Notes: generated from the letters alone by a model not told the origin. DNA of 63,144 bases, filler included, from Rozella allomycis CSF55 (GCA_000442015.1; 12 parts of 12 records of this genome joined end to end with filler, not necessarily neighbours in it), one strand, 5' to 3'; shown: positions 3,826 through 50,792, numbered from the whole stretch's first letter. Numbers and translations are program-made.

Positions 3826-3925
3826 NNNNNNNNNNNNNNNNNNNNNNNNNNNNNNNNNNNNNNNNNNNNTTAATTAATTAANNNNNNNNNNNNNNNNNNN
3901 NNNNNNNNNNNNNNNNNNNNNNNNN
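3826..3925. other. Artificial contig spacer (1 of 11)
   Basis: N-run/TTAATTAATTAA/N-run, 100 nt, with stops in all frames. Others at 10109-10208, 37134-37233, 43618-43717, 45187-45286, 47048-47147, 51709-51808, 53356-53455, 58096-58195, 59760-59859 and 60996-61095. Confidence 0.98.
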
Positions 3926-6720
3926 AAGATGCGGGTTGGACGGCTGGTGAAGGCTGTTGGACAGTTCCATGCGAATGTGGAGCGGGATGACCAGAAGAGG
4001 CAGGAGAGGATGGCGCGGGAGCGTATCCAGGCGCTCAAGGCGGATGATGAGGAGGCGTATTTGAAGCTTGTGAGTCAGCAAAAGGATACGCGGATATCGT
4101 TCCTGTTGAAGCAGACGGATGAGCATTTAGCGTCGTTGACGCAGTTGGTGAGGGAGCAGCAGAATGAGTTGGGAGAGATTGAAGAGGAAAAGGAGGAGGA
4201 GTATTTGGGCGATGAGAGTAGGGCTAATTATTATGGAACGGCGCATCGAGTGCAGGAGAATGTTGTTGAGCAGCCGAGTATATTGATTGGGGGTAGACTG
4301 AAGGATTACCAGTTGAAGGGGCTGCAGTGGATGGTGTCGTTGTATAATAACCATTTGAATGGGATCTTGGCGGATCAGATGGGATTGGTAAGGGGATGAG
4401 GGGTGAATAGAATAGGGGAAAACGATACAGACGATTAGTTTGATAGCTTATTTGATGGAGGTGAAGAGACAGAATGGACCGTTTTTGATTATTGTTCCGC
4501 TTTCAACGATGACTAATTGGAGTTTGGAGTTTCAAAAATGGGCGCCTAGTATTAAAAAGGTTGATTATAAAGGATCGCCTAATGTGAGAAAGGGGCTGCA
4601 GGGGGAGATAAGAAAGATGAATCCGAATGTGATAATAACGACGTTTGAGTATATAATAAAGGATAGACAGTTTCTGTCAAGGATTAAGTGGTTGTATATG
4701 ATAGTGGATGAGGGACATAGGATGAAGAATGCGCAGAGCAAGTTGTCGTCGACTATTGGACAATACTATTCAACAAAGTATAGATTGATATTGACTGGGA
4801 CTCCACTGCAGAACAATTTACCAGAATTGTGGAGTTTGTTGAATTTTGTGTTACCGAAAGTGTTTAGTTCGATAAAGTCGTTTGATGAATGGTTTAATGC
4901 GCCGTTTGAGAATACAGGGGAGAGATTGGAGTTGAATGAAGAAGAGACGTTGTTGATTATTAGAAGATTGCATAAAGTTTTGAGACCATTTCTGTTGAGA
5001 AGATTGAAAAAGGATGTTGAATCAGAGTTGCCTGATAAAGTTGAGAGAATAATAAAATGTAAATTGTCGGCGTTGCAGATTAATTTGTATGAGAGTATTA
5101 AACAGAAATCCAGTTTGGAAAAGAAAGTGTAATTTAATTTTGAGAGTTTAAAAGTGGATTTAGGAAGTTGAATAATACGATTATGCAGTTGAGAAAGATT
5201 TGCAATCATCCGTTTGTGTTTAATGAAGTTGAGAGCCAAATGAACCCACACAAAGTTAACAATGAATTGTTGTACAGAACGAGTGGTAAATAATCTTTTA
5301 ATATAAGAAAAGGAAAGTTTGAGTTGTTGAGAAGAATATTGCCAAAGTTTCAAGCCAGCAATCATAAAGTATTGATATTTTTCCAAATGACGCAAATTAT
5401 GACTATAATGGAAGATTTGTTGAATATGATTGGAATTAAATATTTGAGATTGGATGGATCAACTAAATCTGAAGATAGAACGAAATGTTTAGAATTGTTT
5501 AATAAAAGTGATGAATTCAGTGTATTTCTATTATCAACGAGAGCTGGTGGATTAGGTAATTGAGTTGTTAAAGTGTTAACAATAGGTAATTGAGTTGTTG
5601 AAGTGTTAAAAGGTTTAAATTTACAATCTTCTGATACTGTTATAATATTTGATTCAGATTGGAATCCACACCAAGATTTACAAGCACAAGATAGAGCGCA
5701 TAGAATTGGACAAACAAAACAAGTGAGAATATTTAGACTTGTGACATCCAATTCAATTGAAGAAGTTATTTTAGCTAAAGCGCAATACAAATTAAACTTA
5801 GATGGGAAGATTATTCAAGCTGGAAAATTTGATAATAAATCTACAAATGAAGAAAGAGAAGCAATGCTAAGATCTTTACTTGACTCTGAAAGAAACAATA
5901 ACAATTCTGAAGACATTTTTGATGATGATGAATTAAATGATATTATAGCAAGAAATGATTCTGAATTAGATTTATTCAAAAGAATCGATAAAGAAAGAAA
6001 TGAATTTGATAAACAAACTTGGAATTTCAATGGTGATAAACCAAGGTACACTATCAATTGTTTAAACAAAATAGATTAATTGGTCAAGATGAATTGCCTC
6101 AAGTATTGTTAAACATTCCTGAAGAACAACCTCAAACTAATGATCTATTAGATTACAACAATGGAAGAAGAAAGAGAAAGACAATCAGCTATGATGAAAA
6201 CAACGATGATCCCTTTGATTCCAATCCAACTGAATCTGCTATAGAATCACAACAAGGTAGTTACGTTATTGACACACCACAAGGTATTGAATCACAACAA
6301 GGGTTAGACAATGAATTTCAACCATCAAAAGTTGCTTCTGATTTTAATAATCCACGAGACTTATTCTACGCTATAAACGCTGATCTCTACGCTTCAATCG
6401 ATTCATTCTCGTAACTAATTCTCTCTTACTCAAATAGTGGCCATCGTCGTATCGATCCTTTTATTATTCTTCCAAACGCTTCTGATTATCCAGATTACTA
6501 TGAAATCATCAAAAATCCTATCTGTTTATCCGACATTAAATACAAGGCCGACAATAACTTGTACTCTTCTTTTGATTCTCTCAAATCTGATCTCTGTCTC
6601 TTGTTTGACAATGCTCAAATTTACAATCAAGATGGCTCCATTATATTTGATGATTCTGTTGCACTAAAGAATATTGTCTTGAAATACTTTCCCACAAAAC
6701 TCAAGTTGAAAATTAAATAA
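3926..6720 (+). CDS. SNF2: SWI/SNF-RSC ATPase SNF2/STH1/BRM family, 5'-truncated
   Basis: HSA/post-HSA ([17 protein letters not shown]), [54 protein letters not shown], SnAC and a C-terminal bromodomain ([12 protein letters not shown]...NAQIYN). Introns at 4388-4415, 5129-5154, 5286-5312, 5556-5612, 6046-6074 and 6411-6437. Confidence 0.95.
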
Positions 6721-6841
6721 ACGATTGAATCAATATTTTAAAATGAATATTATTTTGATGAATTTATTCCTTGCATATTTCAAGCACCAAATATTTTCAT
6801 TTGTTAATCTCCTTGGTGATTTCCCTCTCCGATCACCTAAA

Positions 6842-8270
<1,429 letters not shown>

Positions 8271-10108: not shown

Positions 10109-10208
10109 NNNNNNNNNNNNNNNNNNNNNNNNNNNNNNNNNNNNNNNNNNNNTTAATTAATTAANNNNNNNNNNNNNNNNNNNNNNNNNNNNNNNNNNNN
10201 NNNNNNNN

Positions 10209-25954: not shown

Positions 25955-26572
25955 TTATTTACTCCATTGAGGTTTATTTTCATCATTCAAAAACTCCAAT
26001 TCCTCTTTCGTAGAAACCCTGCCCAAATATGCGTTTCGATGAGGAAACCGCCCAAACTTTTCAATAACTTTGCGATGCTGAATGGCGTGATCCAAGCACA
26101 CGTTAAAAAACGTTTTAAACTCTCCATTCTCCTGCTCGAGTCCCAGTTTTGTAAACAGATCCACAGCAATGTTTTGCATTTCAATATCTTCTGAATGTTC
26201 GAATGGCAGGTACATGAACATTTTGTGGAATGGAGTGGGTAGATCTTTGTCTGACTTTAAATTGACCGCCTTTTGGGCGAGTTGGAGGGCTAATGAATCG
26301 AAGGAGAATGCTTTGGCCGTGTTTCTGTAAATGTTTCTTGGAAACTGATCGAGAAGAATGATAATTGCTAAAATGTCGAGAGGCTTTGTGTATGCTTGAA
26401 GTGAATTTGAAGCATCCGGTTTTGAGAATGATAACAAGTCTTGTTTGAAGAGGCTGGCTATTTGGTCGTCGAATTCCTTGTTGGAAGCGAACCAAGATTG
26501 TGATATGCTGGGAATGTTTTTGAGGTCTTTGAACCAAAAGGTGAGAATTTTTTGTGTTAACTCTTTTGACAT
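25955..26572 (-). CDS. DUF924 family protein, intronless
   Basis: ILTFWF...WF...IILLDQFPRNIYR...FMYLPFEHSED...IEKFGRFPHRNAYLGRVSTKEE. Confidence 0.92.
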   Translation of the reverse strand: MSKELTQKILTFWFKDLKNIPSISQSWFASNKEFDDQIASLFKQDLLSFSKPDASNSLQAYTKPLDILAIIILLDQFPRNIYRNTAKAFSFDSLALQLAQKAVNLKSDKDLPTPFHKMFMYLPFEHSEDIEMQNIAVDLFTKLGLEQENGEFKTFFNVCLDHAIQHRKVIEKFGRFPHRNAYLGRVSTKEELEFLNDENKPQWSK

Positions 26573-26578
26573 TTGAGN

Positions 26579-26824
26579 GTAAATGTTTCTTGGAAACTGA
26601 TCGAGAAGAATGATAATTGCTAAAATGTCGAGAGGCTTTGTGTATGCTTGAAGTGAATTTGAAGCTTCCGGTTTTGAAAATGATAACAAGTCTTGTTTGA
26701 AAAGCATTGCTATTTGGTCGTCGAATTCCTTGTTGGAAGCGAACCAAGATTGTGAAATACTGGGAATGTTTTTGAGGTTTTTGAACCAAAAGGTGAGAAT
26801 TTTTTGTGTTAACTCTTTTGACAT
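26579..26824 (-). repeat. 5' part of a second DUF924 copy (likely allele)
   Basis: Near-identical to 26327-26572; n at 26578. Confidence 0.8.
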
Positions 26825-26945
26825 TTAAGAATTCTCCAACGTACAATTTTGTCACTTAATTTTTTTACATAATTAAAAAACATTTCACAATAATTTTTAC
26901 ATTTATTTTTGAACAACCTTTTTCGATTGTACAGACCCTTGTCGA

Positions 26946-29081
26946 ATGATTCCCAATAAACCACCCGAGCTTGTCGAGACAGCGAAGCCTGTGCATGTGA
27001 AAAACAAGCAGCCTGCGGCTATACAAGTGACAGCTGAGCAAATTTTGCGAGAAGCCAAGGAGCGGCAGGAGGCTTTGGAGCGACGCCCTAAGCAGCGTAT
27101 GATAGATGGCGAAGAGTTGTATGAGATGCGGTATTTGCAGAGAAAAGCGTTTGAGGACAAGTTGAAGGCGAACCGTATGGCTATAGGGCTGTGGTTGAAG
27201 TATGCGCGGTGGGAGGAGGACCAGCGAGAGTTGGTTCGTGCGAGATCGGTGTATGATAGATGTTTGCAGATGGATGCGCGCAGTGTGACTGCGTGGATAA
27301 AGTATACGGAGATGGAGATGCGGTTTAAGAATATAAACCATGCGAGGAATTTGTATGATAGGGCGGTGGCAGTGTTGCCTAGAGTTGATCAACTGTGGTA
27401 CAAGTATGCGTATATGGAGGAGATGCTTGGGAATGTGAATGGCGCTAGACAAGTGTTTGAACGTTGGATGGAATGGGAGCCAGATGAAAATGCATGGAAC
27501 GCTTATATTAAATTTGAAAGGAGATATGAAGAGATTGAAAAAGCAAGAAAAGTTTTTGAAAGGTAAAAAGAAATAAAAGATTTGATAGATTTGTGTTTGT
27601 GCATGCGAAACCAAAGAACTGGATTAAATATGCGAGGTTTGAAGAAGAGAATAGAAATTTTGAGGGTGCTAGGAATGTTTTTGAAAGGGCAGTTGAATAT
27701 TATGGAGATGAATTTATGGATGTAAAGTTGATTGTAGAATTTGCGAAATTTGAGAGTAGAATGAAAGAGATTGACAGAGCCAGGGTTATCTTCAAGTATG
27801 CGTTGGAAAAAGTGAATAAAGAAAAGGCAGAAAGTTTGTATAAAAAATATTCTCAATTTGAAAAACAATTTGGAAATAGAATTGAAATAGAAAAAGTAAC
27901 GTTGGACAAGAGAAGATTGGAATATGAAGAATTATTGAAAGAGAATGAAAAGAATTACGATGTTTGGTTTGACTATGCGAGATTAGAAGAGGCGAATAAA
28001 GATAGTGTGAAGATTAGAGAAATTTATGAACGAGCGATTTCACAAATTCCACCAACAGCTGAAAAGAAGCATTGGAGACGCTACATTTTCCTTTGGATTA
28101 ATTACGCCATTTATGAAGAAATAGAAAACAAAGATTTTGATAAAGCAAAAGAAATTTATCAAACTTGTTTAAAATTAATTCCTCACAAACAATTCACTTT
28201 TGCCAAAGTTTGGATTTTGTTTTCTAAATTTTTAATTAGAAGAAAAGATTTCATCTCAGCAAGAAAAAATCTTGGCTTAGCAATTGGTAAATTTCTTAAT
28301 CTATTTCTGAAATTTAGGGATCTGTCCAAAAGATAAAATTTTTAAAGCTTACATTGAATTAGAATTGAAAATGAGAGAATTCGATCGTTGTAGAATTTTA
28401 TATGAAAAATACATTCAATGGAATCCAGCAAATTCTTACGCTTGGATTAAATACGCTGAATTAGAAAAACTTTTAGGTGACAATGATAGATCTAGATCTA
28501 TTTTCACCCTGGCAATCTCTCAAAAAATTTTAGATCGTCCAGATGTTGTTTGGAAATCTTTTATTGACTTTGAAATTGAAAATGAAGAATTTGATAACGT
28601 TAGATCTCTCTATGAAAGATTATTATCGGAAACTGAACATGTCAAAGTTTGGATCTCTTTCGCTAATTTTGAAAAAGAAATTTCTCAATTTGAAAATGCT
28701 AGAAATATTTATGAAAGAGCTTATTCCTCTCTCAAAGATCAAGCTTTAGATGAACAAGTAAATCTTTATTTTCTCTTTCATTTTTAGCGTTTAATTTTAT
28801 TGGAGGCTTGGAAAGAATTTGAAAATTTCGTAGATCCAAATTCTGAATTTTCTCAATCTGTTCAATCTAAATTTCCTAAAAAAGTTAAAAAGAGAAGAAA
28901 AGTTGTCACCGATGATGGCCTGGATGCTGGCTATGAAGAATACTACCACTACATCTTTCCTGACGACAGAAAAGAAATGCCTCATCTTAAATTACTTGAA
29001 ATGGCCCACAAGTGGAAGAAAGAGAAAAATGTTGAAAAGCCAAAAGTGGAAGTTGAAGGAGTTAACAATGTGGAAAACTAA
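26946..29081 (+). CDS. CLF1: Pre-mRNA splicing factor CLF1/Crooked neck (HAT repeats)
   Basis: VKNKQPAAIQVTAEQILREA, ARNLYDRAVAVLPRVDQLWYKY, KKHWRRYIFLWINYA, PHKQFTFAK, EEYYHYIFPDD, LKLLEMAHKWK; 3 introns. Confidence 0.96.
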
Positions 29082-29167
29082 TCTAAATATTATCTTTAAA
29101 TCACTTTTATTTATCATCTTTGTTCTATTTACACTTTTTCATTTCATTTCTTCTTGAACATCTTCTC

Positions 29168-29878
29168 TCACTTCTTTATCAACCTCAACTTCCAATAGTC
29201 GTCACAAGGAGGATCTGGTTCCATTGGATCACTCGTTAGCCCAGAACAATTGAACGTTCCCTTGTCACATCTATAAACATCCCATGAAATTCTAATCTTG
29301 GCAATAAACATATCCTTGTCCATCACGGGCTTTCTATTCTCCCTATCCAAATTCATCCTCATCTTTTTCTTTTCTACTTCCAATCTTCTATTGTTCAGAT
29401 TCCCAATCTCTCTTTCAACTCTTTTCAATTCAGTTTTCAATTCGATTCGAAGTTCGTCATTAAGTTTGTTAAATTCTGTCGTCTCTTGTTCAATCATAGA
29501 ATCGTCCCTGTGATACTTTACCTTGTATCTCTCCACTCTAACACTTCTCAACTGACTCAATATTCTTAACTTTCTTATATCCCTCAGAATATCTATTCTC
29601 CTCTTGTTTACAATCTTGAATTCTCTTTTAATATCTTCCTCTTCAAGTTTCAAAGCAGCTTCTTTTTCCCTAAATACTGCTTGAATCTTATTCCATTCTT
29701 CAATCTGCTTATCAACAGTCTCTGAAAATAGCTTCATCCTCAACCGCCTCTCTTTCGCGCTCTTGCGAACCTTCCTTCTCCATTTAATAGTCTGCCTCCG
29801 CTTCCTAATTCTATATTCTTCCGTTTCCATACAACTCAATCTTAAAAAGAGAGAATGCCTAGAGCAAGGTTTCGCCAA
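29168..29878 (-). CDS. PDCD7: PDCD7 / U11-59K-like protein (minor spliceosome component)
   Basis: Basic coiled coil with QIEEW, LSQLRSVR and C-terminal IRISWDVY...PDPPCDDYW, matching the PDCD7 pattern IRxxWDxY...PPxPSxDxW; start uncertain. Confidence 0.65.
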   Translation of the reverse strand: MAKPCSRHSLFLRLSCMETEEYRIRKRRQTIKWRRKVRKSAKERRLRMKLFSETVDKQIEEWNKIQAVFREKEAALKLEEEDIKREFKIVNKRRIDILRDIRKLRILSQLRSVRVERYKVKYHRDDSMIEQETTEFNKLNDELRIELKTELKRVEREIGNLNNRRLEVEKKKMRMNLDRENRKPVMDKDMFIAKIRISWDVYRCDKGTFNCSGLTSDPMEPDPPCDDYWKLRLIKK

Positions 29879-48696: not shown

Positions 48697-50792
48697 TTAT
48701 TATTCTTTCTTTGATTTTCGTCATTAAATATATTAATGCTAATTTGATCATCACGTTGATCCTCAATTTGATTGAAATGTTCGTTCTTTTCATTTCGTAT
48801 TGAGTTCCCATTTTCTTAAATCTCACTTTCAACCATCTCATCAAGTTCTACGAATCGGGCTGTAATTCGCTTCTCAATAAATTCTAAGCTGCGACTTGTG
48901 AATATTTTATACGTTTCCAATTCGAGAACTTTGTACCCTTTTGACTCATTGTCATTGCCAGGGAGAACACATCTCTTTGTATTTGGCTTCAATTTTGCTA
49001 TCACGGATAAAGGTAGCTTCGTAAAGCAATTCGCCGCAAATGAGACACATCTTTGCTTCATAAAATGCCACATAAAGAATTTTTGTTTTCCCCAAGACTG
49101 CTTTTTTATGGATTGCGATTTTGAAGATAAACAACTGACTGAACCATTTCATCCCAGTACTCTATTAGTATTCCACTCTAGATAAGGAGGCATGGTTCTG
49201 TTTTTTCTCTCAGCCACACCATTTTGTTGTGGACAATAATCAACAGTATACTGTCTCATTATGCCATGTTTGTTCCACAACTTTATCCATCTTTGACTTC
49301 TAATTTCTTTCGCATTGTCACTTATAATTTTCTTAGTTTGTATATTTATTGAATTTGTAAACTGCTTTTGAAAATTCTCAAATACTTCAAATGCATCACT
49401 CTTATTTTTTAAGGTGTAAACATGACACATCCTTGAATAATCATCAATAAATGTAATGAAGTATTTTTGCTCGTTATCCGAATCTTGGAATGGTCCACAA
49501 ATGTCCATATGTATCCACTCCAAAATTGCTGCTGCTCTACTTTCTTTCTTTGGAAACTTTCCATGAGCCATTTTTCCTTGGATACAAATTTTACATTTTT
49601 CATCACAACCCATCTTATCAATTTTTGTCAATCCCTCTACATTTTCAAATTTACTAAGCTCTTTTAATCTTTCTACATTTATATGACCAAATCTCTCATG
49701 CCAGATATTTACCATCTTTTCACTTACCATATTCTCTTTCCTTTGATTTGCCTTTACTAACATCATCGCCTTATTTATCTTAATGTTATTAATATTAATT
49801 TCATGTTCCTCTTTGCCATTCCCTTTTTTAAAACCATTTATCATCAAAAAACTCCGCTGTACAATTTCGCTGTTTTGTAAATTCTGAAAACTAAAAACAA
49901 CTTGGCATTAAGTTGAGGGACATGTAGTACATTTTCGAAAAATTCTTTGATGATATCACCTCTTCCAGCTGCTTTCACTAACCTTGAGTTTGCTGTCTGG
50001 ACATCAACATTGTTGACCGTCGAATAATTTATCATATTAGATTTTTCTTAGGTAAAATGCGCTGACGCACCAGCACTCACGACAAAAAAATTTGAATGAT
50101 CATTTTTTCTCTATATTGATGCTTGTAATGTCCGGCCTTCTTACAGTTGTAACATACTACATCAACCTTATTAACTTTTTTTTCTCTGGCTTGCTTTTAT
50201 TCATACATGTCAGTCAATTTCCTATCATGTTCTAAAACAAAACTATTAACGGTTTCACATCCCATGTCTATAAAATCACTGCGGGTTTCTAACCTCGTAA
50301 TTAAGCTCATGAATTTTCGTGGCAAACAATTCAAGAACAGAATGTTCCTTATGACTGGATCCAGCTCAACTTCATTCTCCTTCATTATTCTTGACGCTAT
50401 CTCAAATTCCACAATAGATTGCTCCACTGACTTACCTCATAACTTTATCAACGATTTCACTGCCTGCACTAGTGCACTTCCGCTATTCTTTCCATGCGCC
50501 TTTTCCAGTGCTGGCCGAGCTGCTCCGGATGACTTTGACTTCCTGGTGTGCTCCAGCTGCGTCGCGGACACGAAGAGATTATTGTCGCAAGTTCTTCAAG
50601 ATCTTGTTCAATTTCTTCTTTTGTAAAGACTCCATTCTCTTTCTTTTGTTCTTCTTCGATGTTATTCTCCATCGGTTTACACACAACTTGCCATAGTTTC
50701 TTGCTTACCAGAATGGCTCTTGCATAAAGTAACCAGGACGAGTAGTTGTCAATATTGAGCGTCGGTATTTTATTTCAGCGGGGCCCATAACT

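Follow-up and report, generated by a model that had tools for sequence, protein, structure and literature searches.

A tandemly duplicated tiny intron and a candidate zero-length exon in an SNF2/STH1-type gene of Rozella allomycis

The window analysed here is a stretch of 63,144 nucleotides from Rozella allomycis CSF55, composed of contigs chained by N44-TTAATTAATTAA-N44 linkers, which lie at 3826-3925 and at nine other places and contain stops in all frames; because of these linkers, genes on the two sides of one are not physically linked. The contig at 3926-10108 begins inside a gene for an SNF2/STH1-type chromatin-remodelling ATPase, which occupies 3929-6720 on the plus strand (CDS 3929-6717 plus the stop codon) and whose 5' end is missing. 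The gene product is 100% identical to P0001, an 865 aa SNF2-related domain-containing protein of R. allomycis CSF55, and in a protein database search a 238-residue exon of the gene likewise matched P0001 with 100% identity. The precomputed Pfam domains of P0001 include SNF2_N (PF00176), Helicase_C (PF00271), and a bromodomain (PF00439), and it is on this combination that the assignment to the STH1/SNF2-type remodellers is based. When P0001 was threaded on the DNA, it was recovered letter for letter after removal of six GT-AG introns, all on the plus strand, five of which are 28 nt (4388-4415), 26 nt (5129-5154), 27 nt (5286-5312), 29 nt (6046-6074), and 27 nt (6411-6437) in length. The sixth is an intervening sequence of 57 nt at 5556-5612, which the public gene model takes as one intron and which is the subject of this analysis.

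The base composition of the gene changes steeply along its length, with an asymmetry between the strands. In the SNF2 coding sequence (3929-6717) the fraction of G at third codon positions goes from 0.64 to 0.01 and that of C from 0.03 to 0.28, and the introns of the gene run parallel to this trend, with 0-1 C in the first four and 4-6 C in the last two. Because the introns show the same trend as the codons, the gradient looks mutational, not a matter of codon choice. The GC skew is approximately +0.5 over 1.5 kb and then negative; it is also positive at 26251-27900 and negative at 29101-29850, and strand-asymmetric composition is found at 16951-17400 and 49501-49800 as well.

The 57-nt intervening sequence had been described in an initial annotation of the DNA as two near-identical GT...AG units, and the exact strings are present on the plus strand: unit 1 is 30 nt in length (5556-5585), begins with GTAATT and ends with AATAG, and unit 2 is 27 nt in length (5586-5612), begins with GTAATT and ends with AAAAG. 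Reading of 5584-5587 bears out the further claim that the units abut at AG/GT (the slash marks the splice junction) without an exon between them, so that the 3' splice site of unit 1 touches the 5' splice site of unit 2, and this internal AG/GT is the candidate zero-length exon. An AG/GT is also found at the boundary of exon 1 with unit 1 (5554-5557) and at the boundary of unit 2 with exon 2 (5611-5614), the two forming a 4-nt direct repeat that flanks the whole. Exon 1 ends with ...GGATTAG at 5555 and exon 2 starts with GTTTAAAT at 5613. The units differ from one another in a single A/G substitution, at unit position 15, and in their tails, that of unit 2 being altered and 3 nt shorter (...TTAAAAG vs ...TTAACAATAG in unit 1). 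The 5' splice-site context, TAG/GTAATTGAG, is the same at the outer and the internal site, with nine bases identical, and the 3' ends of the units, TAG/G for unit 1 and AAG/G for unit 2, are those usual for Rozella introns. Tandem Repeats Finder reports the repeat at 5553-5609, with a period of 30, 1.9 copies, 96% matches, and a score of 107. In the 63-kb window, the unit's first 24 nt are present at these two places and nowhere else (with 0 and 1 mismatch), and none of 100 shuffles gave two matches of this 24-nt start. The region 5536-5632 has an unremarkable predicted RNA fold (-11.5 kcal/mol, z +0.71, with 143 of 200 shuffles folding as well), and no Rfam match was obtained in 5300-5900 at E values up to 1.

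Read in the frame of the exon, both units run G/GT AAT TGA, which places an in-frame TGA at 5561-5563 in unit 1 and at 5591-5593 in unit 2, so that retention of either unit would stop translation. The motif that the units interrupt is invariant: P0001 runs uninterrupted across it, which requires removal of 5556-5612, and the motif is uninterrupted in the DNA of all 80 related metagenome loci (at most 62% protein identity). With a TGA in frame in each unit and an invariant motif interrupted, the 57 nt must leave the mRNA, in agreement with the initial annotation, which had held that both units have to go. The absence of an intron at this site in all 80 loci indicates that those more distant fungi do not share it, and these metagenome relatives, to which the comparison at the DNA level extended, are, at 62% identity or less, too distant to date the duplication; P0002, a protein of 79% identity, was compared at the protein level only.

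The units were considered next to the other introns of the window. Nineteen introns in three genes, each checked by annotation or by homology, are 24-29 nt in length, with a mean of 26.7 and an sd of 1.0; the SNF2 gene contributes its five other introns to this set, of 26-29 nt. A larger set of 54 introns spans 24-31 nt with none longer than 31 nt, its predicted part having been pre-selected to 24-32 nt. The range of 25-32 nt given earlier for the other introns is therefore borne out by the 24-31 nt seen in the sets examined here. A length-blind gene finder, with no length prior and with introns of up to 250 nt allowed, returned 177 introns; 44 of them fall at 26-30 nt, and each of the remaining lengths is represented at most three times. 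As this finder over-predicts long introns by joining unrelated ORFs, nothing but the location of its peak is used here. The codon-only gene finder mis-modelled the SNF2 gene, and ORF-bridging scans were too noisy. The survey covered 63 kb, and real introns longer than 31 nt are possible elsewhere in the genome. In the literature, two R. allomycis introns in S23 are given as "~30 nt" (PMC6349667), and fungal median intron lengths range from 29 to 197 bp in one study (PMC8042348).

The 57-nt whole is about twice the usual length and lies outside the 24-31 nt class, whereas the units, at 30 and 27 nt, lie inside it. In a profile of 47 introns, A occupies position +3 in 46 cases and position +4 in 35, a donor profile that was partly imposed by a scoring bonus. 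The units fit a GTA(A) donor and a (T/A)AG acceptor, both beginning with GTAATT and ending with TAG or AAG. A branch-site consensus was not found in the 54-intron set: a loose NTRAH motif is absent from 15 of the 54, and where it occurs its distance to the 3' end scatters over 3-16 nt. Judged by its length and its ends, each unit is an ordinary Rozella intron. Pairs of the form GT..AG/GT..AG with parts of 22-33 + 22-33 nt number 137 in the window, and eight of these are flanked on either side by an ORF of 40 codons or more; among the eight, similar halves are found only in SNF2, and two others are an exon plus an intron according to the CDKL alignment.

Two kinase genes provide further evidence on introns of this size. 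The neighbouring CDKL kinase gene (6842-8060) has eight introns of 27, 27, 26, 26, 27, 27, 26, and 26 nt, and the alignment of its product with a Spizellomyces CDKL (P0126) covers 330 residues at 72.5% identity; the single gap in it lies away from the junctions. Two of its 26-nt introns (7271-7343) enclose a 21-nt micro-exon at 7297-7317 that encodes VIHRDIK of the kinase catalytic loop. Alignment with chytrid CDKL proteins confirms this exon, which indicates that tiny introns placed almost back to back are processed in this genome. The 27-nt CDKL introns at 7010-7036, 7089-7115, and 7414-7440 contain no in-frame stop, and their retention would add nine residues, which suggests that introns of 3n length without stops are tolerated here. 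In a second kinase gene, on the minus strand at 20313-18887, introns of 26, 28, 27, 27, 24, and 26 nt restore what we take to be the conserved kinase motifs, DFG among them. The public model of this gene, P0241 (20313-17890, minus strand), threads with introns of 47, 49, 63, 36, 30, 32, 35, and 332 nt. Conserved kinase motifs are lost with these introns, and the 332-nt one at the end of the series crosses an N-join duplication. From this comparison the public annotation seems to mishandle tiny introns, and published intron statistics for the R. allomycis genome may be biased upward.

With two complete units side by side, the 57 nt could be removed as a whole or unit by unit, beginning with either unit. 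Four reactions are possible in all, and since every route gives the same mRNA, the duplication would be close to neutral. The feature by which a recursive site is recognized in sequence, an internal AG/GT inside a segment wholly absent from the annotated protein, is found here. The intron duplication itself is genuine, and on balance we lean toward sequential removal, by recursive splicing via a zero-length exon, as its commonest route. In such a sequence of events, the first 5' splice site would pair with the nearest branch site and AG at a spacing of approximately 27 nt, and the removal of unit 1 would place the GT of unit 2 directly after exon 1 (...TTAG) and recreate the same 5' splice site. 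Unit 2 would then be excised, which would amount to recursive splicing through a zero-length exon. The sequential route is favoured because nine bases are identical between the two 5' sites and because the spacing to the nearest partner is that of all checked introns; the CDKL micro-exon, in showing that tiny introns nearly back to back are processed, favours it as well. Where splicing is co-transcriptional and intron-defined, commitment should fall first on whichever complete unit emerges first, which likewise favours the sequential route. We infer the two steps and their order from the DNA, in which the duplication, the need for removal, and the narrow length class can be read directly.

A serious rival, which we regard as possible rather than probable, is that the 57 nt leave in one step, with the 5' site at 5556 joined to the branch site and AG of unit 2 and the internal AG/GT ignored or rarely used. 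This is how the public annotation has the segment, as a single 57-nt intron, and spliceosomes of other fungi routinely handle introns of 40-400 nt. In Encephalitozoon cuniculi, a related microsporidian, a 76-nt intron is approximately 80% spliced compared with less than 20% for introns of approximately 25 nt (PMC6349667), which suggests that greater intron length is not necessarily an obstacle in this clade and lends weight to removal in one step. The lack of a branch-site consensus in the Rozella introns also counts against the sequential reading. Skipping is likewise among the several isoforms described for Saccharomyces cerevisiae two-intron constructs, in which an exon lies between the introns, and natural intron pairs of that yeast gave more than one isoform in 37 of 100 cases (PMC8496845). 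What speaks for the internal sites being used in Rozella nonetheless is that they exactly duplicate the outer sites, which have to function, and that the spacing to the nearest partner is the one used by every other intron; none of the 19 checked introns exceeds 29 nt, and none of the 54 exceeds 31 nt, with the reservation that the predicted part of the latter was pre-selected for length.

A stricter version of sequential removal is that the spliceosome acts as a length ruler tuned to approximately 26-30 nt, such that the 57 nt would be obligatorily spliced twice via the zero-length exon. We hold this to be doubtful. If it were true, the SNF2 locus would be the smallest natural recursive-splicing site known, and genomes with tiny introns could gain an intron by duplicating an old one with the protein unchanged.

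Use of an internal AG, at 5594 or 5603, as the acceptor, with a resulting in-frame insertion of 3-6 residues in the helicase motif, or else a decaying, mis-spliced pseudogene, is very improbable: removal of 5556-5594 (39 nt) or 5556-5603 (48 nt) would leave the frame open, and the codon-only gene finder picked the 39-nt form, but none of the 80 relatives has the motif interrupted, an 865-codon frame with five other intact introns gives no sign of decay, and an intron of 39 or 48 nt falls outside the 24-31 nt class.

The last matter to be weighed is the assembly itself. No N-join lies at the site, as had been claimed, the nearest runs of N being at 3882-3925 and 10109-10152. The initial annotation had named reads with a single unit, that is, an assembly error, as the outcome that would overturn it, and the rebuilt contigs of runs X2, X3, and X4 all carry both units. 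Record 1 of X2 spans them at 3927-5862 with a depth of 267, 0 differences, and 0 gaps, and may be the source of the window sequence itself; record 18 of X4 spans them at 5285-5862 with a depth of 1222 and 0 differences, and record 12 of X3 at 5548-6523 with a depth of 4.4 and 0 differences. The three runs come from three studies, possibly of one isolate, and the comparison is one of rebuilt contigs. A form with a deletion of 27 or 30 nt at the site was not among the differences listed for contigs from four runs, and contigs can lose rare variants. The duplicated intron is not an assembly error. That the genome has a single unit and that the duplication arose in assembly or sequencing is thus scarcely credible and largely refuted: the assembly is rich in false tandem duplications, 16 of its 20 single-N positions in the window lying in or close to the middle of a two-copy repeat, but there is no N at the tandem intron, the junction of unit 1 with unit 2 is present with 0 differences in separately rebuilt contigs of X2, X3, and X4, two of them at depths of 267 and 1222, and, because the units differ, a k=31 graph would need junction words in the reads to join alleles head to tail.

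The single-N positions that coincide with two-copy repeats are 17774, 18498, 24591, 25928, 26578, 36047, 37959, 39417, 40005, 40408, 42081, 47709, 52815, 58578, 60587, and 61892, and the repeats at these 16 of 20 positions have periods of 12-425 nt and 75-100% matches. They look like overlapping contig ends that were joined by an N and left unmerged, that is, false duplications, and such joins can break or duplicate exons. Two further joints in the contigs, 5559->5607 and 5559->5631, were considered as alleles of the tandem intron and rejected, given that their source contigs carry 12-18 mismatches and that the loose ends encode a different SNF2-family motif; the contigs behind them are read, from their sequence, as probable paralogues or as another organism. 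Second contigs in X2 and X4, whose share of the summed depth is between about a quarter and a third, contain clusters of 2-7 differences and small indels, at 5233-5245, 6222-6278, 6693-6757, 7321-7385, and 7920-7947, and may represent a second haplotype or a diverged copy. No variant second contig over the tandem intron is listed in X2 or X4.

As to origin, a tandem duplication between AGGT repeats flanking one intron of approximately 27-30 nt is well supported by the sequence as the probable source of the pair. The suggestion that the second unit was born by duplication of an intron agrees with the 96% matches between the units and with the presence of AGGT at all three junctions. The flanks of the ancestral intron are ...TTAG/GTAATT and ...AAAG/GTTTAA, and the 4-nt AGGT repeats at 5554-5557 and 5611-5614 may have served as the microhomology for the event. 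One intron length was probably duplicated by slippage or unequal exchange involving the AGGT tetranucleotides at either end of the intron, and about three events of divergence now separate the units. The survival of an intact internal AG/GT is not evidence of selection: with approximately 3 differences in 57 nt and approximately 6 key bases, the probability that it would survive by chance is approximately 0.7.

The narrow intron length of tiny-intron genomes may reflect a limit of the machinery, or mutation and selection that keep introns short. The SNF2 locus is a natural construct that separates these two ideas, in that it offers two sets of signals at the normal spacing and an outer pair at double that spacing. 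The mRNA is the same from all routes, and the pathway would be readable from RNA intermediates. The value of the observation at present is moderate, this being one locus in 63 kb and recursion being already known in fungi.

Several known systems resemble the Rozella site in part. The ratchet points of Drosophila and of vertebrates subdivide very long introns, of tens of kb. Recursion through a zero-nucleotide exon is known in Drosophila (10.1101/006163) and in vertebrates (Duff 2015 and Sibley 2015, as cited in 10.1101/224170). These sites are like the one described here in that an AG/GT lies inside the intervening sequence and the upstream exon would abut a regenerated 5' site. They differ in that they were shown by RNA data and are not copies of flanking half-introns, whereas the Rozella site is 57 nt in length, consists of duplicate halves, and is known from DNA.

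Two fungal systems are closer. In Cryptococcus neoformans, the 375-nt intron of BOT1 splits into 210+165 nt around a zero-length exon (10.1101/224170), and in Schizosaccharomyces pombe a 336-nt intron of SPNCRNA.445 and one more intron are described as undergoing zero-length-exon recursion (10.1101/226894). In each case what had been annotated as one intron is two introns around a zero-length exon, and the Rozella 57 nt are annotated as one intron too. The halves of the yeast cases are 165-210 nt in length and were proven by spliceosome profiling, with no duplication reported in the portions of those papers available to us, compared with halves of 27-30 nt in Rozella, where the site is a candidate.

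The stwintrons of filamentous fungi consist of two U2-type introns for which consecutive splicing is needed (PMC8469720), and the complex intervening sequence in Rozella is also made up of two introns. A stwintron has one intron nested in the donor, branch site, or acceptor of the other, so that the order of splicing is forced, whereas the Rozella units lie side by side and are complete. An identity with stwintrons was therefore rejected: each unit has its own GT, its own AG, and a typical length, and the removal of one leaves the other complete.

In terms of origin, the nearest comparator is the model of Rogers, in which an intron is born by tandem duplication of an AGGT-containing segment, as described for ATP2A1 (PMC3265369) and for a potato RdRp (PMC4974935). 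Both that model and the Rozella pair involve a short, intragenic, AGGT-bounded duplication, the redundant copy of which is spliced out with the protein unchanged. The AGGT repeats expected at the ends of the units are found at 5554-5557, 5584-5587, and 5611-5614. The other expected feature, a new intron that copies exon sequence, is absent, as the units match nothing else in the window, the flanking exons included. In the Rogers model, duplication of an exon segment creates a first intron, whereas in Rozella an existing intron would have been duplicated beside its parent, which would add a variant to intron gain by tandem duplication, that of an intron copying itself in place. Among the literature matches listed, none described the tandem duplication of an entire spliceosomal intron, weak evidence that no such case has been published. 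In fungi, flies, and vertebrates, zero-length-exon recursion as such has already been documented, and the new points offered by the Rozella SNF2 gene would be the origin, by duplication of a whole intron in place, and the scale, with halves of 27-30 nt in a genome in which all introns are tiny.
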